Source of the DNA: Cyanidioschyzon merolae
Lineage: Eukaryota
Length of the DNA stretch: 64,000 nucleotides
NCBI GenBank assembly: GCA_000091205.1
Contig: AP006495.2
Reading direction: 5' to 3' (one strand)
The notes beneath the pieces were generated by a model, which did no database searches, was not told where the DNA came from, and saw nothing but the letters and a program-made list of their open reading frames with translations. The translations under genes were made by a program, and so were the position numbers. Positions 9,230 to 55,199 of the stretch are shown piece by piece; within the stretch, counting starts at the first letter, position 1, and the number at the start of each line of letters is the position of its first letter.

Positions 9230-10374
9230 GGCGCTTCGAGTGCTTCTACAAAGTACAATATATAAAAGTTTCTAGTGATAACCTAACCGGTATACTCGAG
9301 AGATGCGTCGACACACCAACGACTTTGGCGCGGGCGGCACGACACAAGCGCTTCAGACTGGAGCATTCTTCGATGACGCCGCCAACACCACCGTCGCAGA
9401 GCTTGCGTTGGTTACTTGACAGGAACAAGAGCTGTTGCAAGAGTCACTCCAGTGACTATTGCTATGGATTGGGGGAAATATAAGTTCCTGTGAAAGGGTT
9501 CATATTTGTGCGTTGCTAAGCGGCGGCGTTTATCCAACGAGTCCGGTTAGGTGCACCGAACCATCAACGTGAAGCGGGCGGGACGATCTTTCAAGCAACG
9601 CTCATGTTGCGGCACTGCCTGAAGAACCGAGTCCGCTTCTGCACCGGCGCTTCGTGCGATGAAAGGCATCGGGTAATTTCTTGATTGCCGGATCACAAGC
9701 TCAAAGTGAAACGCTCATAACGCCTAACGCCACCCTATTAGGCTCAGTTCACCGGTATCAGCTCCCGAGCGCGATGTACAGCAACGAACTTCTGTGTTGC
9801 GCTCGGCTTGCGAGCGAGTGCGCACCGAGAGCCTCGTGCTCGTCATCGCCGTTGACATGAGCGTCATCAAGCCACCAGTACTGCAACTATCCTTCCGAGG
9901 AGAATCGCATGGATCACATAGCGCTCCGCAGACAGTGTATGAAATAAGATGAAGGAACAAGCGCATCCGCAGGCAGTGTGCGTCGTCCGCTGCCGTACCG
10001 AGTAGCATGCACGCGCTCCAGTAATGCCCAGTACGATGGCAGTGAACTGAACAGTCCCCATGTTTGGCGTCTGCATCGAGCACTTCATGACAGCGTCGAA
10101 GCACACGAACTTGACCTGCCGATTATTCAAGGCTCCGCTGAAACCAGAAGCCACTTCCACGCGCAACGAAGACGCACCAACGTCGAGCGCAAAAACAACC
10201 GCCTGCGATACATGTCTGGCCTTGCATGTGAACACTCAGTGCGGAGAGACTTGTTCTCATGAGGACTTTCACCTCAATTGTTTTGCATTATCGGGTGCAT
10301 GTCATCAAATGCTCTTTCGCGGTTCATAGCAGATGCGTTCAACTTGCGTTCATTTGAAGAAACAAAAGTCCTAG

Positions 10375-10870
10375 GCTGAGGTATGGACATGGAGGTCGGG
10401 GATCCTGCAGGGCTGGTGTCCCCGGATGTTTGCGAAAAAACGACAGAAAAAATCCTCTTCCCTCCGGCCGTCGACAGAAGACGAGCAAGTGGCGACGACG
10501 AAGAAGAACAGGGCAGATGGGCGAAAAATGGTGTTTGCCCCACGAGACGATGCCGCAACTGTATTGGAAAAGAGGGCAGGAGTTCGAGGACTCCTTGCAT
10601 GGGTGCGCTCCACCAGATGCAATACATGCAAGGAGTTCCTGAACCGGGCCTTCAGCGCCGCCATCAATATCAGATGATGTGTGGTGCTGAAGACGAGACC
10701 CGAGGGGCTGAAGCGATCCAACTTTGTAGTGCAGTCTCTGATGCTCGAAGCGTACAAAGAGAAGCTGGAATCGATAGTAGACGCCCTGTCGACAAAGACT
10801 GGGACGTGTCTCCGGGTGGGTATTCATTTACCCCACATGTTCGTTGGGCAGTTTTTGTTTCACTGATCAG
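10375..10870 (+). mobile_element. 5'-truncated 3' fragment of a TnpB/Fanzor-like element (copy A)
   Basis: ...RAGVRGLLAWVRST...KEFLNRAFSAAINIR* at 10426-10677. This is followed by a conserved tail (MVLKTRPEGLKRSNFVVQ...YKEKLESIV) shared with copies at 28.2, 41.7, 52.4 and 58.8 kb. A 1-nt indel shifts frame relative to copy C. Confidence 0.6.
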
Positions 10871-13515: not shown

Positions 13516-16500
13516 GAGGCTTTGCTGCTCTGCAGTGCACAGGTGGCTGCCCGAGTTCGCGTTCGGAACGGTCGCTGCGGCCGCGTTGCTTCGAGAACCC
13601 CAGAACGAACGGTGCTGAAGGCCCAGTGCCTGGTACAGGAACGCTGGGGTGTCCTTTTGTTCTGAGCAGCTGATCGGTGTTGCGTGATGGTACGAATGCT
13701 CAGGTAGGCTTCAAGTATGCATGTTTTGAACAAGCGTCGTTGAAGCGGCCTACAATAGTGAGCAGCGCAAGTTTCCGACGTAAAGGGCTCTTTCTGTTGG
13801 GCGGGTGCTGTTGCGAAAAGGACGTATCAGTTGGGACACTCTCAGCGTTCGGATTGTGTTGTTGCGAGGGATGTAAGGATGAAGCAGCGGTATAATGGTG
13901 TTTCGGTAGTAGTAAGGTGCTACATTCGAAGCAGGACAAAGCTAGTGAAGCCGTGTCGCGAGGAACGTCCGTTTTCACCAGGAGGATCGGTGCTCTACCC
14001 TACGAAGCGTTTGCATGAACTGTAGATCAGACGGCCACCAAAACCGAAGCATGCTGTCCGTAAAATGACGCTGAAATGATTGCAGGTCGACCACGTGGCA
14101 CGAATGGAAGCAGCACGGAATACAGAAGGACGCAACGCGTTGGATCTCTGTTCGACCTCCACAGCTGCCTCGTTGATTGTTCGTACGGTATCAACGGAAG
14201 CGACAAACAACTCGGATGACACTACACATCAGATCCGGAGGACATACCAGCACATATAGACCTGAACTTGAACGACACCTGTGCAGTGCCAACGTCAGAG
14301 ACTTGCAGCAAAAGAGGCGAGTACAAGACGCTTTGTCTCAATTGTGTATGGATATAACGAGGAAAGCGTCGACTTCCGCCGACGCATGAAATGCAAACAA
14401 CGCGTCCAGAAGCAAATGACATTGAATTGTTCTGCTGCATGAAGCACCGCACTTTTATCGTTTGCATAGCCTGCTTGTTGAGCTGCTTATGTCCGCGATA
14501 ATCACTGAGATGTAACTGTGTCAGAACCAATTCGGAAGCTTCTGCTTGGGTAACGCGGGCGTAGACGCTAGCATTTTCGGTTTCTTCATGCTGTCACCAA
14601 CAGCAGCCATGCGGGCTTTCCCCCGCGAAGCCAAGTCCGAGTCCCAGATACTTTTCCATGGAAACAGCAGGGACGGAGGCATCTGAAAGCATTTGCCGTC
14701 AGCGGTACCTTCCTGGGGTCGAATGATACTTCTTCGAATACTGCTTACAGAGTAGAATTCGGTTTTCGAATGGAATCGAATCTTGGACATGAGGTTCAGT
14801 GTATTTCGGCATGAGCTTGTGAGTAAGCCGTCAAGGGACGATATCTAGAATATTGAATGTCGACTATCCAGAGGCGTGAGCTGCTGTTTCCACCACTTAC
14901 CTCGAACAAGAAAGATCGAAAACTCGCAGATTGCGTGTTTTGAGCAGGCTACACGTAAGAAAGGAGAAGCTTGGAAGTTTCTATATTTGAGCAGGATGAT
15001 GATGTCAGTTACTTTACGAAACCCTGTTCAACGACTCTACGAATCATCTTGATTCAGGTGTCGCAACGAATTCCAGCGGCAAAACTTCGAAGGAGCCCAT
15101 TAAAAAAGACGCCCGATAATCCTGAATGTGCCTATGAATCCGTAAGCTCCCCTCTCCACTCTTCCATTGTCGATGCTGTGCAACTAAAATCTGGTCGGAA
15201 GAAAATGCATACAAGTGAAGAAAGCGAGTAGTCCAGTGTTCGGGATTAAACTGACGCCAGTGCCGTTGATGAGGCAGGCACTTACGCTGCCTATCCTCCT
15301 GTGCCTCTATATCTCTATTTATCTAACCATGCGTCTATGGACCCATCGTGAATTGAGTGCTTCGATCGATAAACAGTGCAATGGAATCGTAGAAGAACGT
15401 AACTGTTCACATATTGCCCCTGGAAAACCGCTTCCAGTCCATAGGTTTGACACTCCAGTCTCTTTGGTTTTTGAAGCAGACCATGCTAGTGCAGTGCACG
15501 AGGCGGAACGCCAAGGCGCTCTCTCTCCTGGCCTCTGATTCGGTTTTCAGCACAAGGTTCCGGCGTTGCAGTACACTGCCTACAATGAGTACAAGACGAT
15601 TCTTTCAAAAAATATAACTCTCGCACGAAATAAAGCCGCAGGGCGCCTTGGAAACACATTTTTTCTCTGTGCTCATCGAGATATTCATGTCGTAGTGCAG
15701 CAAGTGCGTGTTCGCAATGTTGCCGGTGGTGTCACACCAGGCACGCTTCTCGCTCTCCATTGTCTCGTCATCGAAGGTTCGGTCCGCTGCCCGTAGCGCA
15801 TCTCGCGCATCCGTATCTGTTTCACACGCTCCTTCTCGATGTGTCTCAGAGCGTACCTTTGCTCATGATGCGCGTGTATTGTCGTGAACGCATCCATGGG
15901 AATCGTCGAGCATCCACGCTAGACCACGGGAAACGCTCCCGTCGATGGAGCACGACTGCAGCCTCTGCGCGCTGCACGACGTCTAGAACTGCAGCCCAGC
16001 ACTAAGTGACGCGAGTTGTCCGTCATTCGCCCTTCCGTCTCATGGGCAAAAGTCACGAATGGACGGTTCTTGCCTCCGTACAACCGACATTGTTGCCGGA
16101 TGCAGCGCACGCTCGCCAACTCCTGTTCAAAATCGTTCGCACGAGACTTCCACGTTCCCGTATCCGATCTGAGGCAGAGCACCCCTTCAATGAGCACCAC
16201 TCGACGGGGCCGTGCAGGTTACCGCACACCTGGTACATCGGACACACCGGAGACAAGGCTTGCAGGGCGCTGCCTCACGAAGCACTTGATATGCACCTGC
16301 ATTTGCGTTTGGGGTTTGGTTTCGTCTTTTCTGGAAACCTGTGCTGTTGATGTTCCGATCGCCGGAGTGGTGCGGAGACGCCTCAACGTTCTCTAAGAAG
16401 CGGGCGTGTAAGCTTCTTACTCTACAAGCAGGTCGTGCGGCGTCATCTGCCCGACGGATCAGTTTTGTTGTCACACGAAGAGTTGATGGAAACCTTCCGG

Positions 16501-18513
16501 AGTGTCGTGGACAGCAGGCAGTCCTGGATCCGGAACCCCTGTGAGCCGTTCCTCGCCAAGGTCCATCAAGGCAAGGCAAGCGGGGCGGAGTCTTCTTCGA
16601 ATCAGAAGCTACGTGATCCCCAATGGCGCCTGCACCGCACGTTCGAGGAAATGCTCTCGCTTGTTGGGTTTTTCTATTGGAGCGAGGCCTAGCCACCGTC
16701 TCAGACGTATGGTTCCGCTCCAGCAGCTTCGCCTTCCTGTCCCTTGACGTCCTTTTCTCGAAAGCGTCTTGTCCTTCTCTGTCAGATGGGTTTCTGCTCG
16801 TTAGCCTTTCTGTGGTTGGAGTGACATGAATGCTGGCGCTGTGCCCCGTATCCGGTCGCTTTCCCCGACATGCAGACGCACGGGATGGAATGCAGTACGC
16901 AAACGCTCCTCTTCTATACATGTATATACGCTTTCTTTCGTATGTTTTCGTCCTCGTCTGCGTCGCGAGCACGACCGCCGACAGCCGCGCGCGTTTCCGC
17001 TCCTTCCTCCGCTCACATGAAGAAGCAACTGCGCAATTCAGGGTTCGTGAAGCTAGTGAACGACTCGCTCAAGAACGATGCCACAGATACAAAAAACTCG
17101 TCTATTGATCCGTCAGCGCCTCACAGCGTTTGCCAACGTAGAAGACGTCTTCGACGGGATCGAATCAACGAGAATAGGCAGGCACCACGAGCAGTCCAGC
17201 ACCGTGCCCAGCTGCGTGCTCCTTGACCCAGTACGAGGGACAGATACTGACGTTGTCTCACAACAGCACAGATGAATTTACGAACGAGAGGCCACAAAGT
17301 GTTTCCACGGAGGATCAGCTCATGGGTGATCCTGTCGGATAGGCGGTTTACAGGTGATACCACAATCGCATCTTCGCTTGTGTTGATCCCGCCGTCATGC
17401 TCGCTTGTCTCTTCGCTACGAACTCCGATTCGCCCCATTATGACGAGCAACATATAACTCTACCATTTGTCGACCATGAATTCTCATCGTGTGAAACGAA
17501 AACCCACCGCTCCTATCATAAGCGTTCCCGTCTCCGTTCGACATCCATCGTGTGTGTTGCAGACGAGCACTGGTCCCCTACAAGGGCGAGCTTCTTTCTC
17601 GTTCATCCGCCTCGCGTCATTATCTTTCGTATCAATGGTACGGAAACTTCACATCCTGTACCTTCTATGACAGTATATCGAATGCAATGCACACCGTGGA
17701 ATGGATCTACGAGCAGAACGTCCTGATAATACAGCTCGACAGATTCCGCTTTTGATGCGCTTTCAGCATCAGGTATGCGAGAAGCGTGCATCATCCATCC
17801 GCTGACTGCGGAGTAAATCTCTCGTACAAGTGAGGCTGTTTTTTCGCAAAGCGTCAATGACAACATAACGTCATTCTGCCACCTCTGTCTCTCTCCAAGC
17901 AACAGGACACATGCTTTCTGTTAAACACCTGCCAGAGGAACACAGAAAATCATAAACAGCATGCTGACGCACGTGTTCTGGACACAGGTGCTCCTAGGAT
18001 TACGCTGCCCCCGCATGACGCAGGAAGTGAACTCGCGATGCCGCCGCAGTTACATCGCAACGCATCATGCGTTCCCGATCATCGATCCGCATACATGGGG
18101 TCTGCCTCGTACACGCCCTGACCAGCTACGAGTTGACTGCACGAAGAACCATTCAGGTCGGTACCACAGAGCAGCCATTTTCCCAAGTTCCGCTGGAACC
18201 TCCCTTTACCGCACTCAAAATGCCGAAGCTCCTGTTTTGTCTCGCTGACGCATTGGAACGGAAAGCGCTTGTACGCATCTGGTGCATCAATCATCGTTCA
18301 TCGCGGCTGATGCTACCAAGTCACTTTCCTAAACCGGGGCTGACCGCACTCAAAAGCTACCTTACCTGTGAGATTCTGCAGAAATGCATGGAACGGGACC
18401 AGATCACGGCTCTGTTGCCGTCCCTACACATATACGATAGCTGACGCTTTGCTTGTCACTGACAAAGGTTGCGCGTCATCATCTCCCATTCCGCACTCGT
18501 CAAGCAGCGAAAA

Positions 18514-19574: not shown

Positions 19575-21117
19575 CATAGCAGACATACATGGAACGGGCC
19601 CACAGCGCTCAATCGGGCGTACACACGAAATGCGGAGCATCTCGTATTTGTCATGAACAAATGACCCGGTAGGCCTCTTCCGACACAGCGTACTTGCTCT
19701 CGTTCGCACCTCGGGATTTTTGGACACGCCAGTCTCTCTGGACCCCGCAGTTCCACGGTCTCCCGTCGAAGGATGCTCGTGGCAGCGCCCGAGTCCCGAT
19801 CTCACAGCTGCCGGCTGTTGTCGATGCAGTTCATCCACCGGCGAGACTTGCAATCCATGCTTCGCTTGCCAGCTTCGTCTTCTTCGAATACAGCGCCGAT
19901 GCGCTTTGCGCAGCGGTCGCACTCGACTGCTGTTGTCGGGTATCCCACATGTCCAGCGCACACCCGTCACCGAGTGCAGCGCTGTGCGGCGTGAAGGACT
20001 CCTCCAGTGCTCGGTGCACGCCCCTGACGAGTACAGAAGGCGTCGCTCGATGCCGTGCTCCGTTGCCGCGCCCGGTACCGTACACTGTCGTCACGAACTT
20101 GTTCAGGGCGATCCCCTCGGCGAGTACGCTGTCCGCGGCAGACGCAAGCGAAGGCTTCTGCATTACGCAGAGGATCTGTGAAACGCGGTGCTGTCCGTGA
20201 TAGAGCACGGAGCAGACGGAAGCTTCACACTCGAGAAGTCGTCGACATACTCCGAGCCGTTTCCGATCCCTGGTTGCAAAGCGGTGACACAGGCTCCGCT
20301 GGAAGCGAGTGCCGGGAGAGCTGGTATCCGAGTCCGAGACCGAGCACCCATGGACGGGCAGGAGCCGAGCACCCGTGGACGGGCAGGAGCCGAGCACCCA
20401 TGGACGGGCAGGAGCCGAGCACCCATGGACGGGCAGGAGCCGAGCACCCGTGGACGGGCAGGAGCCGAGCACCCGTGGACGGGCAGGAGCCGAGCACCCA
20501 TGGACGGGCAGGAGCCGAGCACCCATGGACGTCCGTGCCCTGTGGGGTACCGTGCTTGCGTCGAACGCCGTCTCAGCGGTGTTAGCAAGGAGCCGGGCGA
20601 TATGTCTCCTCGGCCGAGTTCGACGCTCTGACTTGCGAAGTACGGTGAGCGATCGGCTCGAGCTTGTGAGCAAGTCGTTAACGGACGGCGTCGACGAACG
20701 TTCCGAAAGCGTCCAGGTGCTTGAGGTGGCGCGCCCACTGGGTTGCCTCGGAATAGCAAGATCGAAAACCTGAAGATTGGATACTCGGAGCGGGCTGCAA
20801 GTGAAGATAGAAGAAGAGAGGCGTCTAGCGCGTATGCATACAACGGTAGTATCGATTCGTTTACGATGCCTTGTTCGCGGGTGTCCCGAATCGTCTCGAT
20901 TCTGGTGACGTAACGAGTTGCAGCGGCACATCGTTGAACGTGTCGCTCCGCGAGAAAGAAGAACCACCGACCTAGAATCCTGAGAGTGTATACGAATCCG
21001 TAAGCATTTTATTGGTGCTCCATGAAAGTCAGCGCTTTGCATCTGAACAAGTTCAGAGGGAAATCTAAATGCAGGAACAGGGTGTGCAGTTCTTTTGTAG
21101 ACTTATATCTGACGCGG
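19575..21117. repeat. Segmental duplication, copy 1 (about 1.54 kb, direct orientation)
   Basis: Near-identical to 26608-28175, with a few SNPs and one extra 25-bp unit in copy 2. The coordinate offset is 7033 before the minisatellite and 7058 after it. Divergence points were read directly at both ends. Confidence 0.9.
20338..20530. repeat. 25-bp minisatellite, about 7.7 units (ccgagcaccc[a/g]tggacgggcaggag)
   Basis: Direct reading. Because 25 is not a multiple of 3, all three frames give a 25-aa periodic pseudo-peptide (EHPWTGRSRAPMDGQEPSTHGRAGA), explaining the overlapping ORFs. Confidence 0.9.
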
Positions 21118-21718
21118 GTGTCTGCAACTGCCAACGCAGGCATTTACGTCCGAAGCTGTGGGTCTCAATATGGTTTTCCAGTAGCGATGACTGCCAGGGT
21201 TGGTTTGCGGTGCAAACCAAGGTTCCTGAGCTTAACTTGAATGCTTCTAGCGAGCGCACTGGTTTATTGTTGCTCTCGCGAGAGGCTGGCGCGCCTTGTA
21301 TGAACCTCAAACGCTCTATGTTTCCGACCAACGGCACTTGTCTCAGAACCTGCTGATTACCTCGGCACCGCTTCCCGTACACAAGCCTTCAAAGCACATT
21401 ATTAAAGGATTCATGATAGATGCTTTTCCAGGAAACTGTCGTGCGGTTGTCTACCCGATGTTGGAGCAATAGCTAGTGCCCCCATTGTATGAGCGTGAAG
21501 CGCGCTCAGCAGGTTCCTATGCGTTGCGCGTCACCTTTCCTTGCCTGTATGATAGCGCCGCCCCTACATATGTTCCTACGCTGGGTGCACGGAGTATTCT
21601 ATATGACCGAGCGAGCGTGGAGCCAAAGCGCAATTGGCAATCGAAGATGTTCAGCATAGCGAGTACCCGAAGTCGCCATACAGTGACCTGTCTATAGAAA
21701 ACACAACTTGAAGGACAG

Positions 21719-26607: not shown

Positions 26608-28175
26608 CATATCAGACATACATGGAACGGGCCCACAGCGCTCAATCGGGCGTACACACGAAATGCGGAGCATCTCGTATTTGTCATGAACAAATGACCC
26701 GGTAGGCCTCTTCCGACACAGCGTACTTGCTCTCGTTCGCACCTCGGGATTTTTGGACACGCCAGTCTCTCTGGACCCCGCAGTTCCACGGTCTCCCGTC
26801 GAAGGATGCTCGTGGCAGCGCCCGAGTCCCGATCTCACAGCTGCCGGCTGTTGTCGATGCAGTTCATCCACAGGCGAGACTTGCAATCCATGCTTCGCTT
26901 GCCAGCTTCGTCTTCTTCGAATACAGCGCCGATGCGCTTTGCGCAGCGGTCGCACTCGACTGCTGTTGACGGGTACGCCACATGTCCAGCGCACACCCGT
27001 CACCGAGTGCAGCGCTGTGCGGCGTGAAGGACTCCTCCAGTGCTCGGTGCACGCCCCTGACGAGTACAGAAGGCGTCGCTCGATGCCGTGCTCCGTTGCC
27101 GCGCCCGGTACCGTACACTGTCGTCACGAACTTGTTCAGGGCGATCCCCTCGGCGAGTACGCTGTCCGCGGCAGACGCAAGCGAAGGCTTCTGCATTACG
27201 CAGAGGATCTGTGAAACGCGGTGCTGTCCGTGATAGAGCACGGAGCAGACGGAAGCTTCACACTCGAGAAGTCGTCGACATACTCCGAGCCGTTTCCGAT
27301 CCCTGGTTGCAAAGCGGTGACACAGGCTCCGCTGGAAGCGAGTGCCGGGAGAGCTGGTATCCGAGTCCGAGACCGAGCACCCATGGACGGGCAGGAGCCG
27401 AGCACCCGTGGACGGGCAGGAGCCGAGCACCCGTGGACGGGCAGGAGCCGAGCACCCGTGGACGGGCAGGAGCCGAGCACCCGTGGACGGGCAGGAGCCG
27501 AGCACCCGTGGACGGGCAGGAGCCGAGCACCCATGGACGGGCAGGAGCCGAGCACCCATGGACGGGCAGGAGCCGAGCACCCCTGGACGTCCGTGCCCTG
27601 TGGGGTACCGTGCTTGCGTCGAACGCCGTCTCAGCGGTGTTAGCAAGGAGCCGGGCGATATGTCTCCTCGGCCGAGTTCGACGCTCTGACTTGCGAAGTA
27701 CGGTGAGCGATCGGCTCGAGCTTGTGAGCAAGTCGTTAACGGACGGCGTCGACGAACGTTCCGAAAGCGTCCAGGTGCTTGAGGTGGCGCGCCCACTGGG
27801 TTGCCTCGGAATAGCAAGGTCGAAAACCTGAAGATTGGATACTCGGAGCGGGCTGCAAGTGAAGATAGAAGAAGAGAGGCGTCTAGCGCGTATGCATACA
27901 ACGGTAGTATCGATTCGTTTACGATGCCTTGTTCGCGGGTGTCCCGAATCGTCTCGATTCTGGTGACGTAACGAGTTGCAGCGGCACATCGTTGAACGTG
28001 TCGCTCCGCGAGAAAGAAGAACCACCGACCTAGAATCCTGAGAGTGTATACGAATCCGTAAGCATTTTATTGGTGCTCCATGAAAGTCAGCGCTTTGCAT
28101 CTGAACAAGTTCAGAGGGAAATCTAAATGCAGGAACAGGGTGTGCAGTTCTTTTGTAGACTTATATCTGACGCGG
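26608..28175. repeat. Segmental duplication, copy 2 (about 1.57 kb)
   Basis: See copy 1. Its right end directly abuts the TnpB/Fanzor-like fragment B. Confidence 0.9.
27370..27590. repeat. 25-bp minisatellite, about 8.7 units (one unit more than in copy 1)
   Basis: Direct reading. The A/G variant pattern differs between the arrays (copy 1: a,g,a,a,g,g,a,a; copy 2: a,g,g,g,g,g,a,a). Confidence 0.9.
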
Positions 28176-28760
28176 ATGCAGGACTGTGTGAACACTGAGC
28201 AATACAAAAAAACGTTCAACGGCCATGGAGGGTATACAGACATCCTCCCTCGCAGACGCCGCCCAGCCTTCTTCGACTGGCTCCCCTGCTATCGGCTTCA
28301 GTTTCTCCTTGTACATTTCGTGTTGGAAAAGTTGCCCCACGAAGTTCGCACGTGTCAGCTTCCCCGGTCTCGTCTTCAGCACCACTCAACACCTGATATC
28401 CTTGACGGCGTTGAAGTCTCGGTTCACGAACTCCACGCGTTTTAGTCTCTCGTGGAGCTCATTCAGGCGAGGCTTCTTCGAACTCGCGCCCCCTGCGGCA
28501 TGTGCTGCTCTATCAGCTGTCCGAGGTTTTCCAACGCCGAACCGCTCCGTTGCCTTCTCTCAACATCAGCCTTCGGAAGTGTAAACCCCAGATCAGCCTG
28601 TGTTTTGCTCGTTCGGAACACAGCTATCGGTACCGCGACCAAACGCTGCGAGCTCTCCTTGTACGCGCGCGCCAAAAGAACCAATATTCTCCCTTTTTGG
28701 GGCAAGCAGTGCCCTGACCAGTTTCCCGCTAAAAGCTTTTGACCCTCATCCTCGTTTAAG
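28176..28760 (-). mobile_element. 5'-truncated and internally deleted TnpB/Fanzor-like fragment (copy B)
   Basis: Minus-strand reading gives ...SSQRLVAVPIAVFRTSKTQADLGF...RVEFVNRDFNAVKDIRC* and then VVLKTRPGKLTRANFVGQ...YKEKLKPI (ORFs 28463..28705 and 28161..28385). Confidence 0.55.
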
Positions 28761-29012
28761 GTGCTCAGCTATCTCAAGAAATCGACACTTGTACGCTTCT
28801 TCCTTTCGTACAAACACATACGGTGGCGGGGTGGGGGCCTGTCCGCCGATGCAGACCGCCTTCCACAGCTCGTCGGTATGAGTGTTTTGAACTTTCCTGT
28901 ACTCACGAACAGCTTCAAACTCCGCTCCTCGAAACGTGACTTTCTTCATCGCATCCCGGTACTTATTTAGTGCCGGTTGTTCAGTCGTAACTTGTTTCGA
29001 CGGCTCCGTCAT
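28746..29012 (-). CDS. Small hypothetical protein (88 aa)
   Basis: Clean ORF of lower GC with a plausible start and stop. No motif recognised. Confidence 0.3.
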   Translation of the reverse strand: MTEPSKQVTTEQPALNKYRDAMKKVTFRGAEFEAVREYRKVQNTHTDELWKAVCIGGQAPTPPPYVFVRKEEAYKCRFLEIAEHLKRG

Positions 29013-30027
29013 ACCCGACTATCGGTAGTTTCAAGCTCGCTAGACCTCCAACGGATGCATCTCATTCTGGCGCAGGTTGTCGCCAATACTATTTTTCCAT
29101 GGACAAAACGTTTACGTAGGTCAGTGTTCTCCGATTATGCGCATTTTCCTCTCTTTTTGTGGGTTTTTCAGTGCACGCTGAAGTATCCATCAAAACGCCC
29201 TACCTCCAAGTTGCATCACCCATACTTTTTCTCGGATATTCTGGTCGTTTCACACTTTGTATCGTGTGTGCCTAGTGCCTGCGGAAAGCGACAGCAATGG
29301 CGCCTATAGCGCCGGTGCGGTCGCTGTACGGAGACAATGGCGTTGTCGTAGTACAGAGGGCGTTGGCTCCAGGGTCGCCAATGCGATCTGCCAAATATGG
29401 AGGTGCGTTTATCGAGCGTGCTGTATGGAAAAAAAGGACAGAAACGAAACACGAACTAGCAACGAGATAACAACTTCGTTCCTGCCTCTCCGGTAAACCT
29501 TAAAATGGGGAAAAGGTTTACGTATTGGCGAAAGGTCCCGCGAGCCAGACGACTCTACCGGGCTTGCGCTCCGTGCTTCTCCCAGTAACGGATGGTGTTG
29601 TGAGATCTAAGCAGCTCGTCCGAAACGGAGTTTATTCTGAGACCCGGAGCGAGCATGCTGCATCTGGGCCTCGGCCTGGTTTCGGTAAACTCTTATGAAA
29701 TCGCTTCGCGCTGTCGCGAGCAGAAGGTCTGTCTGCGCAGCTTGCAGGCTCGCAGCATAGTTATGGATCCCGATTCCATATCGTATGAAACACACCTCGA
29801 GCGGACGCCGTCTGTGGTATGGCAATGCCGCCCTGTCTCCATGAGGCATCCGCTCCAGCTGCATAGGCGCAAAGGCGGACCCTCAAAGCAGGCACTCCGC
29901 GGCCGATAGAACGTACAAAAAGACGAGTACATCCCAGAACAGTTGATGGAACTTGGATGCAGGGTGCAGCAGCATGATCGACACTTTCCCGAAAGCCAAT
30001 ATCGGTTCCGCACTCTGGGATCCATGG

Positions 30028-31200
30028 TCAATGGAAACGATTTGTTATTGGAAGAAAATCCGTCCCACGCTTGGGCGCAGCGATGGACATGGTATCCTTC
30101 CTCCCTGGGTCCACGCTGACGACAACGTCGTTCACCTGTACTCCATACATCGCGGGGCCCGCCTCTTTCTTTTCATGCTTCGTCATAGGCGACAGCGAAG
30201 ACAGAATAGGACGAGCCACCCTCAAGCGCCAGCAGTGAACGCACATGGATATTCCGTATCGCGTTCGATCGTTCACGTGAATGCCTTTTTCTTTCTCGTG
30301 TCGAGCCGTTCCGAAACGAGGACATTCTTTCAATACGTTTCCCGCTTTTCGCCTGTGAACTCCGTGCTGCTTACATCGGACCCGGACTTGTCTCCTTCAT
30401 GATGCCGTAAAGGACTCTGGAGTTGATGGTCCCAAAGTGTGACTTGATGTTGGATGACGCAGCGACGTCAAAGCGCTTCTCCAGAAGCGCAACCTTCCGT
30501 TTCACCGAATCTGCATCATTATTTTCAACAATATCCATATTCGTCTTGCGTTCGAGCTCTCGGTTCGAAAACACGAAACAGAGCAGAATAAGGGGATAAC
30601 ATCTTTTTTCATATCCGATGCCTTTTCTGCATGGTTGACCAGCCCCAGAACCGCGCAATGCTCTTGAATAGCTGTATGGATCACAGAATCGTCATTCGTG
30701 ATACTGTGAGACGTATCGTCGTTGACGGAATCAGTTTTGCCTTCATCCCGACGATCGTTCATGATGCCATTGATACTGGCCCATATCTCTTCTTGGGAGA
30801 GAGGCCTGGTTAGAGCGCAAAGCCGGAGCGTATCATGAAGTGTTTGAGGTTCATGGTGAATACGGTTCTTCAGATTCGTGAGGTACTTCGTCGCCCCGTG
30901 TCCGCAAATACGCGAGTCAAGCCTGTATCGAGAACCGCTGGAGCGGTATTCGACGTAATCTTCGTGGAGGCGTGTACTCCCTCATTTCTCCTCAGCGTTT
31001 CCACTGTTCAAACCATAAGGTGGCCGATAAAGGTCGAGCTGACAAAGTCTCCCGGAATATCAACTGTCTGGCTGTGCTTGACGTCGTCCAGCATCTCCTT
31101 CACCAAATGCTGTAGTCATGAAGAAATCTTTTTCATACTCGTGCAGCAGGACGCGAAACGGTTTCTGATAGCCTCCCGCAAATTTTGCATGTAGGAACCC
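30028..31200 (-). pseudogene. Degenerate copy of the N-terminal (REC to RuvC-I) half of the TnpB/Fanzor-like gene (copy F)
   Basis: Minus-strand frames give VKVYLHGLIKGSYMQNLREAIRN (vs [23 protein letters not shown] in copy D). They also give NSVIHTAIQEHCAVLGLVN..., ...NRELERK...KSHFGTINSRVLYGI..., and ...VNDVVVSVDPGRKDTMSIAAPKRG (the RuvC-I-like VDPG). Frameshifts are present. Confidence 0.6.
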
Positions 31201-32532
31201 TTGATAAGCCCATGAAGATAGACTTTCACCACCCTCTCGCCGTATTGTTGTCTTTCGAATTGCTTTTGGTGTCTGGCCTCCTGCCTCAGCTTCTTCGTCG
31301 TCTCCTGTTACTCTGGGTTCGACACTGTTTTCCGTATTTTTACGGCAGCAGGCGACACCAGGTCTCTAGGATCCTCGACTTGAACGAACATACTTTTACA
31401 TTGGATTTTTATCTCTTCAAAATCAACGCACTTCTTTATGCCCATGGATGACGAACTTCCTGGAGGGTCTAGGACTTGACGAAGGAATACATCATGTGCT
31501 CCTGGTGTATTTCGGTTTGCTGAACGCTTCAGCGATTCACCCAGTGGTGCGATCATCATGTCTCACGATAGATAACGTTCCTTCGATGTGCTGAACCATG
31601 GAGAGTACGGAGGAATGAAGCGTAGCTCTATCCCGATAGAATCGGTAACAACTCCAACGCAAGAGAAAGGTGAAATGAAAGATACCCCAATGGAAGGAGC
31701 GCTGCCAGGCTTCAGGGGAAATTCTTCAATGATTCGACGAACTATGTGCTGTTGTATGAGCCTTCTCTATGCGCGAAACTGAGACCTTCAAACGAATCCA
31801 ATGCAGCTAGAACGAATAAGCGCAAGGTTCTCTCCAGTCTCAATTTTACATACAACGGGCACCCTGCTCCGCGAATACCCATATACGCTCCGATCGTTTC
31901 GTCCGAAGTGAGTCTCATCGACTGAAAAAGCAAAATAAAGTCCCTTTGTTTCGTACTGATCGGGACGTTAACGGAACCTGTCATTCTGATTTCGGTGGAA
32001 AATGGCCGTGCACGAGCTAGGATTCTATCTTGCGACTTTATCCCAGCGATTTCAGGATCTCACGAACAAGCTGTTGAGAAATCGAGACGCCCGTGGCGGC
32101 TTCAGTCGCCACCACTGCCTCCTGTAAGATGATAAACGTGTTGTTTTCTTCCATTGACAGCAAGCACGCTTTGAAAATACCGGTTTTTGACGCGGAGCGC
32201 ATCTACTTTCTTTCAGAGTTCTCTAGCCATCTGAGTACTGTGGTATGACCGACCTGAAGGAGGAATGCCGTCCTTCTTGCACTGTACAGTAAAGATATAT
32301 ACCCTAGAGACAATTTTCTACGGTCTATACGGTACATTGTATCATGATTTCGATCTCCTGCTGTACACCGCAGCGAGGATGGAACAAAACTGAGCTGGAA
32401 GACTGAAATTGGCTGTCTGACCTGGTTTGCACTGCATGACGCGGGTCGCGGGATACATTTTTCCTGTGCAACGTTCAGTCAAAACTACTTGAAAATCCAG
32501 CCGAGTTAGCTTGGCTTTGCGGACTGCAGGAG

Positions 32533-38759: not shown

Positions 38760-40083
38760 CTTCGGGTGGACTTTCGCTCTCGAGAAGCGTCATCTTCAGC
38801 GCGACATGTACCGCACTCCGGATACATCGTCAATGAAACAAAACATGTCCCACGCTCGTCTAGGGCAAATGAATATCCACTCGCAGACGCCTGCCAGTCT
38901 TTTTTGGTAGGCCTACTGCTATCGACTTCAGCTTCTAGTTGAATACTTCGAGCATGAGAGGCTGCCCGACAAATTTGGATCGCGTCAGCTCCTTGGTCTC
39001 GTATTCAGTAACCCATCTTTTGGTAGTGATGGCCGCGTTGAAGTCCCAGCGCACGTATTCCATGTATTAATTGCCTCTGGTTGACCTCAGTAGTGCAAGG
39101 ATTCCGAAAACTCGCGCCCCACTGTACCACTACAGACTCGTGGCCGTTGCGTCCAAGAGATACCTTTTCTGGTCTATGTCCTCGCTTGTTCGTCACTCAC
39201 TCTTCTCCGCTCGATTGTCAGCGAGAAGAGGGCTTTTGCAATTATTTGTCGAAGTCGGCAATGACAATACTCCTGGATCCTCGACTTCCATGTCCATACC
39301 TACCCAATGGATTTTCTATTTCTCCATATGAACGCACATCGAAAGCATCTACTGAGATCCGGGATAAATCAATCAATTATGCGTACGTGGGTGCAGAACA
39401 CAATGAAAGGTGAAAGCAGGAATGATGGAGAGTTAATGGCGAACGCATTGTTTGACTACGGGGTACGCAGGGCCAGCAGGATCACCGATACGTTCGCGTC
39501 CGCTGAAGCAGAAGCAGCAGGGTTCGAGCGCGCTGCAAACTACGGGGTGTTCCTGCTGGCCTCTGATCCGACGCGTAAGCGTTTCTCGACCGTATGATGC
39601 CTACAAGAAACTGTTCTTTACATGGATGCTATCTGCCGATAGATGCTGATTTGTATAGATCCACATCACCAACTTGGGCGCTCATTCTATGCAACTCGCT
39701 TCTTTCTTGCGTCCTGTACGCGTTCTGAGGCGATAGATTGCCAATCGCCACCGTTCCGTGCCCAGCGACAAGCGAGTCGAATGATGCCTACAAGCACCAT
39801 AGCACATTCGATATACGACGTCGAAACTGGATGCTTCGCGTGCCCGCGTTCGACACGTATATAGTACAGAGGCTGGCGCGTGCCTCGTGCACGATACCCT
39901 CAACATTACAGGTGCTGAATGTAGTTCGAGCGCATGCTTACGCAGCCTGAAGTGATGCACAAGAACACGCTGTCTCCAGTCGATGCTATCGCAGACTCGA
40001 CACTTGCTTCGGCTGCAGTGCAGGTTCTGCTTGTGCGTCTGTGTGCATGTCCGGTGAGATCTTCTTTGCCGCCTTCTTAGGTT

Positions 40084-41283
40084 TCATTCCAACTTGAACA
40101 GAATCTTTCCCTTTCGATTCGGGGCAAACTGTGCCCGAAAAGCATCCTCATACTGTTCGAGTGTATATTCTTGCTCAACTTGCGGTCGCATATCACCTTT
40201 GCGAATCATTTCAAACGTTTCCTCGAAAATCGTCGGCTTCTGGTTCTTCAACCAAGTTGTAAGCGAGAAACCGCGGACAACGATGCCCTTAAAGATCAGA
40301 TCACTGTTCATGACACACGTCGGTTTGCCGCTCTGCAGCCCGTATGCCATGAAAAGGCCGCCCGGGGAGAGCGCTGCCAGCGCAGCCGAGCCCATCTCGC
40401 CGCCAACAGCGTCAACGACGGCAGCGAGCCCGCGTCCATTCGTTATCGCGTTGAGACGCTCGGCGAGGTTCGGCTCCTCGCCAAAAACGATCACCTCGTC
40501 TGCCCCGAGCTGTTTCAGTTCCGCAACAGATGCTTTCGATCGCACAAAGTTCACCGTGCACAAGCCCCGCTTTTTCGCCAGCTGGATGAACATACGACCG
40601 AGAGTCGAGTTCGCCGCTGTCTGTCCGATCCACGGGTTGCCGTGAACCGGCGCCTCCGCTTCGATCTGCTCCAACATGCCGACCACGGTCAGCGGATTCA
40701 CTATCAATTGAGCGGCCTCTTTATCACCGATATCCTGTGGTACTTTGATACAGAGGTTTTCGTCCACCACGAGGTACTGTTGCCAGCAGCCCGAGCGATC
40801 CGCAAGTGTTGGAATCACACGCGTCCCGACAGGAAGCGAGGTCGCTGGACCTTGCGCCACAACTTCTCCGACACCCTCGAGGCCGCCAACAAACCCAGGA
40901 CGACGTTCGCGCACTGCGGCTACCCCAGGGTACACGCCTTGGACGACAAACACGTCGGCAGGATGGAGGCATGCATACCGCATCTTCACGAGCACCTGAC
41001 CCGGACCAGGCTTCGGGACAGAAGCAGTGGTGTTCAACCTAAGTGCTCCCTTCAGCGGATCGCCAAAACTTACAATTTCCAGAGCTTTCTGCGTTGACGG
41101 TATATGTGTTGCCATAGAGTCTGCAAATCGGTTGCGTCTTCCAGCAACGACACCGCCAGGCCTGTGTCTGGAATCAATTTTGGGGCAGGGAGTGCGCACA
41201 TCAGGCTGGCCGCGTCCACCCGCCACACCTGGACCCGTGCCGCGGTATGCGAATGAATCTGGACTGTGGGAGGCAGCGTGCAT
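40084..41283 (-). CDS. Trans-2-enoyl-CoA reductase (MECR/Etr1-type MDR-family oxidoreductase), probably mitochondrial
   Basis: MRYACLHPADVFVVQGVYPG resembles Etr1 (NPADINQIQGVYP). The MDR-type zinc-ADH fold runs throughout. The true start is more likely the internal Met at about 41115 (MATHIPSTQKALEI...), because the upstream part of the ORF overlaps the Fanzor-like fragment C on the other strand. Confidence 0.7.
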   Translation of the reverse strand: MHAASHSPDSFAYRGTGPGVAGGRGQPDVRTPCPKIDSRHRPGGVVAGRRNRFADSMATHIPSTQKALEIVSFGDPLKGALRLNTTASVPKPGPGQVLVKMRYACLHPADVFVVQGVYPGVAAVRERRPGFVGGLEGVGEVVAQGPATSLPVGTRVIPTLADRSGCWQQYLVVDENLCIKVPQDIGDKEAAQLIVNPLTVVGMLEQIEAEAPVHGNPWIGQTAANSTLGRMFIQLAKKRGLCTVNFVRSKASVAELKQLGADEVIVFGEEPNLAERLNAITNGRGLAAVVDAVGGEMGSAALAALSPGGLFMAYGLQSGKPTCVMNSDLIFKGIVVRGFSLTTWLKNQKPTIFEETFEMIRKGDMRPQVEQEYTLEQYEDAFRAQFAPNRKGKILFKLE

Positions 41284-41925
41284 TCGTCAACTTTTTCAAT
41301 CAGTTGAGCGCCTTGAAGGAGGATCAAAGTCAGAGGCTCGTAGTAGCGTACGGAGCAGGGCGCTGGAAGACCCAAAAAGGGACGAGGCCAGCTCCAACGA
41401 CAAGAATGTATGAGGCGTGCACACGGCGTTTCGTTACGATACCGATAGATGAGTTCCGAATATCCTATACACACCATGAACTGGGATGCACACTTCAGAG
41501 GGTCGAGATGGAAACGTGCCAACGGAGCCCTGAGGATATAAAAAAGCACGGACCGCTGACGGAAGAGCAAATGGAAAGGAGGGCGAAAGTTCGTGCATTG
41601 CTTGCACTAGTGAGTACAACCAATGATAGTAAGAAACGTATGGAGTTCGTGAATCGTGACTTTAATCCTGCTATCAATATAAGGAAATGTGTGGTGCTGG
41701 AGACGAGACCTCCAGAGTAGACAAGAGAGAATTTTACTGGACAACCTCTCAAGGTTGAATCATATGAGAAAAAGCTGGAAGCAGTAGTGGGTGACCCGTC
41801 GAACAAGGCCGCGAGGCGTCTGCACATCAGTTGGTGACTTCTTGTCTAGGGCGCGGTTTCTCGCCACTACTGCACACCGCCGGCGACGTCGTTCGACTGC
41901 GAGAGGCGTTCGGCGGTGTACGAGG
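41150..41925 (+). mobile_element. 5'-truncated TnpB/Fanzor-like fragment (copy C), carrying the RuvC-II-like segment, the zinc-finger region, RuvC-III and the 3' tail
   Basis: ...RQRAFVNFFNQLSALKEDQSQRLVVAYGAGRW...TRMYEACTRRFVTIPIDEFRISYTHHELGCTLQRVEMETCQRSPEDI...RRAKVRALLALVSTT...KRMEFVNRDFNPAINIRKCVVLETRPPE*. The tail is conserved with copy D up to about 41900. Confidence 0.65.
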
Positions 41926-44900
41926 GGTGTGTGCTTTAAACGCCAAGCTTGTTTCGCTGCTTTTTTTTTGAAAACTCGACCATCGCTGGGACCCAGCACT
42001 GGCAAGGATCAATGCCGTGTGTCTGCGAACGCTCTGTCCTCTAAAAGTTCGTGGTTTCGTCTGGAAATCCAAACGAGCTTCCGTCACGGGCGGGGAACGT
42101 GTCACTCGCTTCGAAGAGGTGAACGCCGTGAACCAGAGGACGGAAAACGGTGCAAGCTTCCTATGGGAGGCGCTTTCGCTGCATACGCCATGACTCAGGC
42201 GCTCATTCTTCCCGGGAGCTCTGCTTTTATCAAAATACCACCGTACGCGAACAACCGCACGACCAGTACGTACTCGAATGGAGCAAGCTGCGTTGCCAGT
42301 CGCCGCCACTGTCGGTTTTTGGGAGCCGGCTCAGGCCGGAGCCGCGCCTTGACTGCGTTTCTGGTGAAGCAGCAGTGCTGTCGCTGCGTCGACAGTTTGC
42401 GGCGCGCACAGACAGCTAAGCGCTCACCTGGTGTCGCTGCGATCCGTCTCGCGACCGAGTCCCCGGAACAGGACCCTGTTCTTGACTGGCTCCGCAAAGA
42501 GCTCAACGACGAGCAGTTTGCAGCCGCGACGGCGCCCGTTGACGCTCCAGTTTTGGTGATGGCTGGCCCCGGATCAGGCAAGACGCGGGTTCTCACTTAC
42601 CGAATGGTGTACCTCATCATCAAAGAACTCTTCAGGGCAAGGCACTTATTGGCGGTTACGTTCACGAACAAGGCTGCTGATGAGATGCGAGCACGCGTGA
42701 TCGACCTACTAAAGTCGCGACAAGGCACCGAAGTGGAATCCTCGCACAGCGTTCCCACTGTTGGTACGATTCATTCGGCCTGTTCGCGCATCTTGCATCG
42801 GTTTGGCGCAGTCATGGGCATTAGCTCCAAGTTTAACATCTATTCCGAGTCGGATGCTAAGCGGCTGCTGCACAGGATCCTCGAAGAAAATGGCGAAACG
42901 ATGATTGACCCGAAGAAGATTGCGTTGTTCGCCGCGCTTCTCTCCGAGATGAAGCAGGAACAATTTTGCGCGGAGTTTGGTTACGAGCCGTCGCCCTCTA
43001 GGTCGCCGGCCTATGATGCTCGTGGCATCACTGCATACATGGTGGAACGCGCCAAAACCCTCCTTCCGGTGTACCAGTCGGAGCTGCGACGGCTTGGGGC
43101 ACTCGACTTTGATGATTTGATCCTGGAGGCGGGACGCCTGCTTCGGAATCACCCGGCCATTCGTCTGGAGCTCCAGAAGCAATGGCAATACATCATGGTA
43201 GATGAGACTCAGGACACCAGCCAAGCTCAGTATCATGTAATTCGATTACTGGCTGAAAGAAAACGTGAAACAGAGAAGTATTTCCCGTTGTTTCTTGTGG
43301 GTGATCCCGACCAAAGTATCTATGGATGGCGCGGGGCGGACATGCACGCTGTTCGGCGTTTTCGGGATTCGCTACCGGAAACCCGTGTCTACCTATTAGA
43401 GAACAATTACCGCTCGACGAAAGCAATTGGAGATCTAGCACAATACGTCATACAACAGGATCGTGAACGGATACATCCAGAGAAACGCATGCGTACGCAG
43501 CTAGAGGGCGAACATCCCGTTCGCTTGGTCTTTTGTAGGAACAGCAAGTCGGAAGCTGAATTCGTGGTCAAGCAAATTCGAGAACTCGTCGCACGCCACA
43601 AGCTCTCTGGTCGAGATATCGCCATCATGTACCGAACAAACGTTCAAAGCCGTACGCTCGAGGAAGCCTGCATACATGCCGGTGTGCCGTACGTCTTGGT
43701 TGGCGGTCTGCCCTTCTACGAGCGGCGCGAGGTCGCAGACATGCTGGCCTGTTTGAAGCTGCTCCTCCACGAGGGCGATACAGCAAGCTTTGAACGGGTA
43801 TTGAGCTTTGCGGTCTCCGGCATTGGCAAACGAACGACCGCCGCATTGTACGAATGGGCGAAACACCTGAACTGCACACCGATCGCGGCACTTCGGGCGC
43901 TCAGCAATGTCGATGCGGATACACCAATCGTTTCCAAAGCGATACCGAGCGTACCGCGCTCGCTGCCCGTGCATGAAACCCCAGCGGTGGACGAAAACGC
44001 CTCCAACGGAACCCGGGGTGCAGCTGAACTCGAGACTACCCCGACTTTGACCGATGAACAGGTGGCCATGCTGGGTGTCACTTCGCGGAAACGCAAAATC
44101 TTGCTCAAGTTTTTGGAGATGTATGAGCGGTGGAAGAGATTACTGCGAACACCTGTGGCCGAGATGAGCCGCAGGTATTATGTGCTTCCACTCATGATTA
44201 AGACAATTTTCGCAGACACGCAATACGAGGAATACGTCCGCAAGCAAGCGCTCCACGGACCCGCTGTCAATGAGGAGACCAGCGCTCTTCGCGTCCAGGA
44301 GCGTCTAGAGAACGTCGTTGAACTCGCACGAGCCGCCTCCACAGCCGAGGAGCTCTGCCTGAAGAGGGGTGCTCAAACGGCCGGCGACGTTCTCGTGACC
44401 TTTCTGCATGAGGTTGCACTTGTGCATGGCGCTAACCGCGACGAGAACACCCCGAAAGATGCATTCGGCTGTGTGAATCTCATGACGCTGCACGCGAGCA
44501 AAGGTCTTGAATTCGAAGCAGTTTTCATCGTTGGTATGACGGAAAGTCTTCTGCCACACAAGCTGTGTCGTACCCGAGAGTCACAGATCGCGGAGGAAAG
44601 GCGGCTGGCATATGTCGGCTTGACTCGCGCCAAGCGCCACCTGACAATCACCTGGTACCCAAATGGCTCCGAATGGCTCTCCCGGTTCCTCCTGGATGCA
44701 CCTGACGAACTCGTCAGTCGACACTGCGCCCGGGATCTGATGAAAGGTCGCCTGGACCCCATTCCACGTGAAGAATATACGCTGCGGTGCAAGCAAGCAC
44801 ACGCGGGCAGCAAGGAGCCGGTACGCATCGGTGACATAGACGTACTGGGAGAAGTGAAGGCCAGGAGCAGGGCGGCGGAATCGAAACGAGCACGTGTCCA

Positions 44901-45066
44901 GGCAAACGCGGACTCCAAACTAGCCGCTGGGGTTTTTGTAAGGCATTCAAAATATGGCAAAGGTATTGTTGTCAAGAAACTAGACGGTACACCGCTCGTT
45001 GTCGTGCGATTCTTCGAGCAGCGCGGGACAAAGGCTGTTCCTGGAAACTTCTTGGAGCGGCTCTGA
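41791..45066 (+). CDS. UvrD/PcrA-type superfamily-1 DNA helicase (bacterial architecture) with an N-terminal extension of about 200 aa
   Basis: Walker A is VLVMAGPGSGKTRVL. LAVTFTNKAADEMRARV and the helicase motifs follow, ending ...LTRAKRHLTIT.... The C-terminal HSKYGKGIVVKK...VVVRFFEQRGTK resembles the UvrD/Rep C-terminal domain. The annotated start lies next to a TE fragment and is uncertain. Confidence 0.75.
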   Translation: MTRRTRPRGVCTSVGDFLSRARFLATTAHRRRRRSTARGVRRCTRGVCFKRQACFAAFFLKTRPSLGPSTGKDQCRVSANALSSKSSWFRLEIQTSFRHGRGTCHSLRRGERREPEDGKRCKLPMGGAFAAYAMTQALILPGSSAFIKIPPYANNRTTSTYSNGASCVASRRHCRFLGAGSGRSRALTAFLVKQQCCRCVDSLRRAQTAKRSPGVAAIRLATESPEQDPVLDWLRKELNDEQFAAATAPVDAPVLVMAGPGSGKTRVLTYRMVYLIIKELFRARHLLAVTFTNKAADEMRARVIDLLKSRQGTEVESSHSVPTVGTIHSACSRILHRFGAVMGISSKFNIYSESDAKRLLHRILEENGETMIDPKKIALFAALLSEMKQEQFCAEFGYEPSPSRSPAYDARGITAYMVERAKTLLPVYQSELRRLGALDFDDLILEAGRLLRNHPAIRLELQKQWQYIMVDETQDTSQAQYHVIRLLAERKRETEKYFPLFLVGDPDQSIYGWRGADMHAVRRFRDSLPETRVYLLENNYRSTKAIGDLAQYVIQQDRERIHPEKRMRTQLEGEHPVRLVFCRNSKSEAEFVVKQIRELVARHKLSGRDIAIMYRTNVQSRTLEEACIHAGVPYVLVGGLPFYERREVADMLACLKLLLHEGDTASFERVLSFAVSGIGKRTTAALYEWAKHLNCTPIAALRALSNVDADTPIVSKAIPSVPRSLPVHETPAVDENASNGTRGAAELETTPTLTDEQVAMLGVTSRKRKILLKFLEMYERWKRLLRTPVAEMSRRYYVLPLMIKTIFADTQYEEYVRKQALHGPAVNEETSALRVQERLENVVELARAASTAEELCLKRGAQTAGDVLVTFLHEVALVHGANRDENTPKDAFGCVNLMTLHASKGLEFEAVFIVGMTESLLPHKLCRTRESQIAEERRLAYVGLTRAKRHLTITWYPNGSEWLSRFLLDAPDELVSRHCARDLMKGRLDPIPREEYTLRCKQAHAGSKEPVRIGDIDVLGEVKARSRAAESKRARVQANADSKLAAGVFVRHSKYGKGIVVKKLDGTPLVVVRFFEQRGTKAVPGNFLERL

Positions 45067-54703: not shown

Positions 54704-55199
54704 TATCTCGTTGTACAGTTGTCTTTCTTGCCGCCTTCGACGTAGAACCTCCCCCTTTTTGAATCTTCATCACTTCCTGTTCCTCTTTGCTCCGCCTTGT
54801 TTATCTTTTTTTCCGGCAGCGGGTGATATCGGCCCTCCGGGATCCTCCACTTCCATTTCCATGACTTTCCTTTTAATTTTTTGAAAACGAACGCTCTTTG
54901 AACGCTTCTGTTATATACTTCGAAAAAACACTTGAATATACTCAATTGAGGGTCGGAATAGGATGGAACAGAAAACCTATACTTTGCTACGACCTCAACG
55001 CGAATACAACTTTTACAGTAGAATAGCACGCCAATGATCAGGATCACTGTTCCCCTCAAGAGCGACCAGAGCGTCGTGTCTCGTGCCCGCCGGATCTGCC
55101 AGGTGCGCGTGCACGCGCAGCGGCTGACCTGCGCCCCGCCGCCGATCAGGAGATTGCTTCTGGATATGTCTATCTCAAAGCGTGATAACCTGTTGCTGA

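Follow-up and report, generated by a model that had tools for sequence, protein, structure and literature searches.

A Probable Full-Length but Inactivated Copy of the Fanzor1 Transposon CMe-1A, Accompanied by a DDE_3 Transposase Relic, in Cyanidioschyzon merolae

Family Assignment and Structure of the Element

The minus strand between approximately 28200 and 32404 of the 64,000-nucleotide C. merolae stretch analyzed in this study (referred to as the window) very probably represents one full-length but dead copy, approximately 4.2 kb in length, of the Fanzor1 transposon family published as CMe-1A. Bao & Jurka (2013, Mobile DNA 4:12, PMC3627910) reported CMe-1A as a Fanzor1 element of C. merolae with about 150 copies, each approximately 80% identical to a consensus of about 3 kb, some of these copies being still intact; the transposon family of this copy is, thus, already known from the same genome since 2013. 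The consensus is 3169 bp long, and its open reading frame (906-3110) encodes 734 aa (PMC3627910, Additional file 2). Terminal inverted repeats (TIRs) are absent from CMe-1A, its target-site duplications (TSDs) were described as undetermined, its transposon class was given as unknown, and its 5' 635 bp are 95% identical to TE-N2_CMe, for which about 70 copies were counted (PMC3627910). The origin of the window was established by seven of its long open reading frames, which correspond exactly to chromosome 13 proteins of C. merolae 10D, among them CMM090C, CMM091C, CMM093C, CMM103C, Elp3, and AsnRS.

The proposed order of modules along the minus strand starts with a DDE_3 transposase pseudogene (31419-32404), followed by the N-terminal two-thirds of a Fanzor1 pseudogene (30058-31381, consensus 916-2247), a nested insertion of about 960 bp that splits the pseudogene (29094-30057), the C-terminal third of Fanzor1 (28252-29093, consensus 2248-3084), and a variant 3' terminus (28196-28251), which was recognized from an alignment of four old 3' ends; the end of the element is located near 28200-28215. 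In blastn comparisons with the CMe-1A consensus, consensus positions 916-2241 were aligned with 31381-30066 (77.1% identity over 1334 nt) and positions 2245-3084 with 29095-28252 (65.5% over 856 nt). The C-terminal third was, moreover, hit by tblastn with pieces of another copy in the window (copy D) and of the relative P0001, and matched positions 418-597 of the family profile. This copy and CMe-1A are therefore collinear over consensus 916-3084 with 65-77% identity, in the same order and on the same strand, and this level of identity falls in the range published for the ~80% identical copies. In addition, TIRs and TSDs were found in neither of them, and the nested piece is CMe-1A's own 5' module. 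The copy differs from CMe-1A at its 5' end, where the DDE_3 relic is located and both the TE-N2 module and consensus 658-915 are missing, and in its last ~100 nt, which are unlike the 3' end of the consensus.

At the protein level, the stitched translation of copy D retrieved 53 relatives, mostly from JGI metagenomes, for which DUF8286 was the only previous label; a literature search for DUF8286 found no paper mentioning it. Pfam searches with the separate open reading frame pieces of D returned no match, and an NCBIfam search no meaningful one. A profile built from six homologues was compared with the PDB and recovered SpuFz1 (8gkh) with an E-value of 3.9e-6 over about 350 residues, the next PDB match being at E 0.16. 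SpuFz1, the Fanzor1 protein of Spizellomyces punctatus, is an RNA-guided DNA endonuclease. In the alignment with 8gkh, the DPG, DEFRTS, and NRD motifs (RuvC-I D, RuvC-II E, and RuvC-III D) were in register, and the distant intact members P0047, P0052, and P0053 (29-41% identity) have the motifs (V/I)DPG, DEFRTS, and NRD.NAAINI in common. SpuFz1 is only a distant relative: where it has its CxxC...CxxC zinc finger, the C. merolae proteins have a segment poor in H and C, and the copy studied here is a pseudogene. Cysteines are largely absent between RuvC-II and RuvC-III in the C. merolae-type proteins, in which a search for PF07282 (C4 zinc ribbon) gave no match; P0052 and P0053 matched this domain below its gathering score (E 0.006-0.009). 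An AlphaFold model of the intact relative P0047, calculated from a 16-sequence alignment, reached a mean pLDDT of 43 and a pTM of 0.38.

Taken alone, this copy matters little, being one of the ~150 decayed CMe-1A copies. C. merolae is, however, a tractable model alga whose Fanzor1 family is partly intact despite its age, and the window holds old copies still attached to a relic of a mariner-type transposase beside internal-deletion derivatives that keep both ends. These copies offer a testable answer to the question of what mobilised the elements, and form a natural series in which a contribution of Fanzor1 to the retention of a cut-and-paste transposon could be examined.

Transposase Module and Possible Mariner Origin

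The 5' module at 31419-32404 (minus strand) was recognized as a degenerate transposase pseudogene of the Tc1/mariner-IS630 type (DDE_3) by tblastn with intact transposases from metagenomes (L019, L022, L016, and L025), which matched 32337-32029 and 31925-31590 (E 7e-18). The translation of the module features an HTH-like motif followed by SVDETHFGR and PPYSPWF, the relic motifs being placed at 32305-32337 (MYRIDRRKLSL, with the start codon), 31899-31925 (SVDETHFGR), and 31590-31613 (PPYSPWFS). The same intact proteins also matched two other sites in the window, 57692-58408 (E 5e-23) and 17893-17126 (up to E 7e-17). At the nucleotide level, the module is approximately 70% identical to 57590-58583 (1003 nt) and also to the locus L009 from another genome, the stitched homologue of which matched Pfam DDE_3 above the gathering score (E 6e-10). 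When the stitched transposase pseudogene was used as query in a word-indexed protein search, no match was returned.

Combinations of a transposase with Fanzor1 were previously described for the Mariner elements PUl-1 and PGv-1; the architecture was reported for Pythium (PUl-1) and not for C. merolae (PMC3627910). Both elements encode a mariner-type transposase of about 300 aa followed by Fanzor1 on the same strand, which is the order observed in this copy. PUl-1 also possesses 24-bp TIRs and TA duplications (PMC3627910), for which no counterpart was found here, and its transposase did not match the window significantly when compared directly (E 0.87). The PUl-1 transposase did find intact open reading frames of about 300 aa in the metagenome loci L019, L022, L015/L016, and L025 (E 1e-23 to 1e-17), which are matched by Pfam DDE_3 with E-values of 1e-24 to 1e-27 and are located 100-160 bp upstream of intact, co-oriented Fanzor genes.

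Since the pairing of transposase and Fanzor1 is recurrent, and intact in the metagenome relatives, the old copies in the window are regarded as relics of mariner-type transposase plus Fanzor1 elements. On balance, we somewhat favor the interpretation that the Fanzor1 repeats of C. merolae descend from an element with a Tc1/mariner-type DDE_3 transposase and Fanzor1; the copies at 28.2-32.4 kb and at 57.6-59.0 kb (copy F) as well as the 15.7-17.9 kb relic would then be remnants of the autonomous form, and the abundant CMe-1A would have been derived from it later, as a non-autonomous element having the TE-N2 module in place of the transposase. Alternatively, the DDE_3 relic could be an unrelated mariner next to a CMe-1A insertion that is ordinary except for its 5' truncation. 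The published CMe-1A indeed contains no transposase and has the TE-N2 module as its 5' end (PMC3627910), no pair of TIRs was found to bracket 28200-32404, and the stitched transposase sequence of this copy remained below Pfam significance for DDE_3 (E 0.06). Such a chance neighborhood is nevertheless unlikely, because the transposase C-terminus abuts the Fanzor start (VEDP...) in the same way in this copy, in F (57590-58975), and in L009, because a third co-oriented pair exists at 17.9-15.7 kb, and because, in the metagenome loci mentioned above, both genes are intact and equally arranged; moreover, the inverted-repeat pair of L019 spans both genes, and its 5' arm matches this copy and F.

The third pair (15688-17893, minus strand) is more diverged and consists of the DDE_3 relic at 17893-17126 upstream of a C-terminal Fanzor fragment (16218-15688, profile positions 473-595); a 261-aa open reading frame without Pfam match (16187-16972) is located between the two. 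F (57590-58975, plus strand) carries the best-preserved transposase relic of the window, joined almost directly to the last ~400 nt of Fanzor and the variant 3' end. F is an internal-deletion derivative, with the layout expected of a non-autonomous element that keeps both termini.

Termini and Candidate Guide RNA

The 5'-terminal motif CAGCTCAGTTTTGTTCCATC was located at ~32380-32400 and matches the 5' TIR of L019. In that locus, both genes are enclosed by a 23-nt imperfect inverted repeat; F and this copy both carry a match to its 5' arm (CAACTCAATTTTGTTACACC) at their 5' ends. For the region 28200-32404, no inverted partner was detected at the 3' end, with scores at the level of shuffled sequences, and when the ends of this copy, of D, and of F were searched for TIRs and TSDs, the results did not exceed chance. 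Flanking direct repeats corresponding to a TA target-site duplication were likewise not above chance at any of the three copies, where a divergence of about 25-35% may make a 2-bp duplication unrecognisable. As neither TIRs nor TSDs were found for this copy, its exact ends and superfamily are assigned by homology alone.

Four variant 3' ends, at 28196-28225 (minus), 10845-10866 (plus), 38830-38850 (minus), and 58955-58975 (plus), terminate in GTTTT(T)GTTTCAYTGA. The core of the 5'-terminal motif (CAATTTTGTTTCATC) recurs in this sequence in direct orientation, whereas a mariner TIR would be inverted.

The 3' end of this copy differs from the D-type 3' end. The last ~150 nt of the latter type (52449-52600, minus; 41740-41893, plus; and the 3' ends of L006-L082) overlap the end of the open reading frame and contain a potential long-range stem of 13 bp (GCAGTAGT.GGTGG / CCGCCACTACTGT) as well as a terminal hairpin (CGTTCGA-CTT-TCGAACG), both being conserved in 18 copies. 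The base pairs of the stem hardly vary, and its covariation term amounted to only -0.83 kcal/mol, so that support from covariation is weak. Neither an Rfam family nor a tRNA was detected when the window was scanned for them. In TnpB and Fanzor systems, the guide RNA is derived from the 3' end of the element, and the D-type 3' structure is a candidate for such a guide-RNA scaffold. The ancestor of this copy would have been a mariner-like transposon, the second gene of which specified an RNA-guided RuvC endonuclease similar to SpuFz1, and, judging from the relationship to SpuFz1 and from what is established for TnpB/Fanzor, in the intact ancestors the guide RNA would have originated from the 3' end of the element.

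Nested Insertion and Continuity of the Pseudogene

The earlier note, which described the region 30028-31200 only, had considered it to be a copy of the N-terminal half of the gene. This region is homologous to D; however, the homology already begins at 31381, and the copy continues downstream past 30028. The C-terminal half was also found to be present (28252-29095), displaced by the nested insertion of about 960 bp, so that the designation as an N-terminal half could not be maintained.

The insertion was delimited by blastn to the CMe-1A consensus and is composed of two parts. Part A (30048-29388) represents the TE-N2_CMe-like 5' module of CMe-1A in the same orientation (consensus 3-680, 77.7% over 687 nt), and part B (29199-29373, possibly extending to ~29097) corresponds to consensus 84-256 in inverted orientation (74% over 177 nt); the two parts are 65% identical to each other, inverted. 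Among the 80 metagenome loci, dozens have sequence resembling the nested module directly before their Fanzor 5'UTR, and as many as 39 overlap the nested-insertion stretch. The possibility that the ~1-kb interruption consists of unique DNA, as suggested by the lack of a second copy in the window, was ruled out by these matches and by the similarity to the CMe-1A 5' module.

At the junctions, the last host bases before the insert are ...GGGACGGAT (consensus 2247), and the first ones after it are AGTATTGGCGACAAC (consensus 2248), without a base being lost or duplicated. Because the host runs from consensus 2247 to 2248 across the insert, 30058-31381 is considered to be the 5' two-thirds of one full-length copy. 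It is very improbable that an N-terminal-only copy and a separate C-terminal fragment came to lie 1 kb apart by chance: fragments comprising only the C-terminal part are admittedly common in the window (c10, c39, c41, and F58), and the two halves differ in their divergence (77% vs. 65.5% identity), but they share strand and order, join exactly in the consensus, and enclose a recognizable transposon module. The nested piece is diverged from the consensus by 22%, compared with 23% for the N-terminal part of the host, and the second insertion therefore took place early. The one full-length copy would, according to its proposed history, have decayed neutrally after its insertion and have received a second insertion from its own family.

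An imperfect direct repeat of 15 nt (12/15 identical) was noticed at 29374-29388 and 29079-29093 on the minus strand (GATCGCATTGGCGAC / AATAGTATTGGCGAC). It flanks part B, and its second copy belongs to the host. A first nested insertion may have generated the repeat as a long target-site duplication; no such duplication was reported for the family.

Homology to Copy D and State of the Gene

The alignment with copy D that the earlier note had proposed as a check bore out the suggested relationship. In blastn, 30111-31381 matched 53572-54852 of D with 69.4% identity over 1288 nt (E 1e-147), and tblastn of the 459-aa open reading frame of D against the minus strand of 30.06-31.38 kb produced collinear segments in the frames -3, -2, -1, -3, and -2. 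The N-terminal part of the pseudogene comprises at least five reading-frame segments with at least four frame switches relative to the D open reading frame, in agreement with a degenerate, frame-shifted copy of D's TnpB/Fanzor-like family. The four peptides quoted previously were all located on the minus strand, spanning 30064-31229, namely VKVYLHGLIKGSYMQNLREAIRN at 31161-31229 (extending 29 nt beyond the former end at 31200), AIQEHCAVLGLVN at 30634-30672, NRELERK at 30545-30565 together with KSHFGTINSRVLYGI at 30401-30445, and KHEKK...VVVSVDPGRKDTMSIAAPKRG at 30064-30180. A profile of six family proteins matched five successive stop-to-stop segments (best E 1e-22). Since these matches cover profile positions 6-395, the similarity also extends outside the K/E-rich stretches, and the concern that it might be confined to them proved unfounded.

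With the insert removed, the gene was aligned to the intact coding sequence of P0001 (locus L001), which revealed 29 indels, 18 of them not being multiples of three, and 12 in-frame stops. The RuvC-I Asp is retained within VVVSVDPG (DPG codons at 30103-30111), as deduced from the family alignment and from the alignment with SpuFz1, where it is aligned with IDPNKRDI. RuvC-II reads PIAVFRTS (28607-28630), compared with PVDEFRTS in the consensus and the intact relatives; as DE is changed to AV, the catalytic Glu is gone. The RuvC-III Asp is kept in VNRDFNAV (28404-28427). In D, the RuvC-II Glu is kept and directly followed by a stop. The Fanzor1 gene of this copy is dead, with ~18 frameshifting indels, ~12 stops, and the RuvC-II Glu lost. 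No activity is plausible, and the copy as a whole would now be without function. That the similarity is a low-complexity artefact of the K/E-rich linker before DPG, or that the locus still functions as a gene by reading across its frameshifts, can practically be dismissed, given 77% nucleotide identity to the consensus over 1334 nt together with the breadth of the profile matches on the one hand, and the frameshifts, stops, replaced catalytic Glu, and internal insertion of 960 bp on the other.

Compared to a 66-sequence consensus, the substitutions showed a transition/transversion ratio of ~1.1, with 124 GC>AT and 114 AT>GC changes. RIP-like or other directional mutation was ruled out as the cause of the decay by this balanced spectrum, and ordinary neutral decay is assumed because the spectrum is unbiased.

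The RuvC-I Asp motif noted previously is kept in this copy, but the residues preceding DPG read VVSV and not VVG(A/V). Although the note had taken the copy to confirm VVG(A/V)DPG as ancestral, it is not required for establishing DPG: DPG was already invariant in the six-sequence alignment A1, which takes in the 29-41% relatives and the full-length P0001, the published consensus reads FVVGADPG, and D also has DPG. Regarding the RuvC-I motif, nothing new was learned from this copy.

The 75-bp Unit Preceding RuvC-I

A single 75-bp unit encoding 25 aa (TKHEKKEAGPAMYGVQVNDVVVSV) is located at 30112-30183 (minus strand). Tandem Repeats Finder detected no array in this copy, compared with 3.0 copies of the 75-bp unit in D (53422-53646, minus strand), so that the claimed difference of one unit here and three in D was verified; the CMe-1A consensus also has a single unit, and the distant relatives possess one linker of unit length. 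Each unit repeats the beta-strand leading into the catalytic Asp (NDLVVGA). Judging from these comparisons, the single unit is the ancestral and consensus state, and the triplication in D is derived. Across the family, one unit was counted in the consensus and this copy, two in P0002 and P0004, three in D and P0010, and four in P0001; the 75-bp unit before the RuvC-I Asp, thus, behaves as a variable-number tandem repeat.

Divergence and Age of the Copies

Copy D is 85% identical to the CMe-1A consensus in both halves, compared with 77% (N-terminal part) and 64-68% (C-terminal part) for the copy studied here. D is without the TE-N2 module, and orthologous copies with 94-96% identity occur in environmental strains. 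Since the 77% of this copy's N-terminal part is close to the published family average of ~80%, D is the young outlier. The stronger divergence of the C-terminal part (65.5% vs. 77.1% identity to the consensus) is not explained by simple neutral decay of one CMe-1A copy, and points to a source element unlike the consensus, or to a recombinant.

Over the C-terminal part that is shared within the window, D and c41 are young, with 84-88% identity, whereas this copy and the fragments c10, c39, and F58 are old, with 64-70%. A common 3' terminus unlike that of the consensus is found in these four, with only 43-58% identity to consensus 3070-3169; for this copy, the 58% identity to consensus ~3085-3169 does not amount to an alignable match. 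This distribution, along with the variant 3' end, would fit an older lineage. Regarding the older insertion wave proposed before, the copy is indeed more diverged than D; however, its N-terminal part is of average divergence for the family, and one 64-kb window cannot establish discrete waves. In a midpoint-rooted NJ tree of 68 N-part sequences, this copy formed the longest terminal branch (0.22, compared with a median of 0.012), a value that was not used as evidence of exceptional age, the comparison set having been chosen for intact genes.

Other Repeats in the Window

Two further short elements, c10 (10305-10866, plus strand) and c39 (38830-39364, minus strand), are 68.6% identical to each other. 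In c10, consensus 832-965 (5'UTR and start of the open reading frame) is joined to ~2833-3082 and the variant 3' end, and c39 matches only the 3' part of the consensus (2842-3084) and c10. The two seem to represent another type of internal-deletion derivative.

A segmental duplication of 1.57 kb (19575-21120 / 26608-28178) with 97.8% identity is far younger than any transposon copy in the window. It contains an open reading frame without Pfam match and internal arrays of 50-bp units (20340-20531 and 27373-27589), and its second copy stops approximately 20-30 bp short of the Fanzor pseudogene's 3' end.

Finally, c41 (41163-41918, plus strand) represents a young, 5'-truncated Fanzor fragment with 87.7% identity to the consensus. 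It runs into the first ~40 codons of the listed open reading frame of a UvrD-type helicase (41791-45066, plus strand), the helicase domains of which begin at residue 238; the true start codon of this gene is probably located downstream of the listed one.
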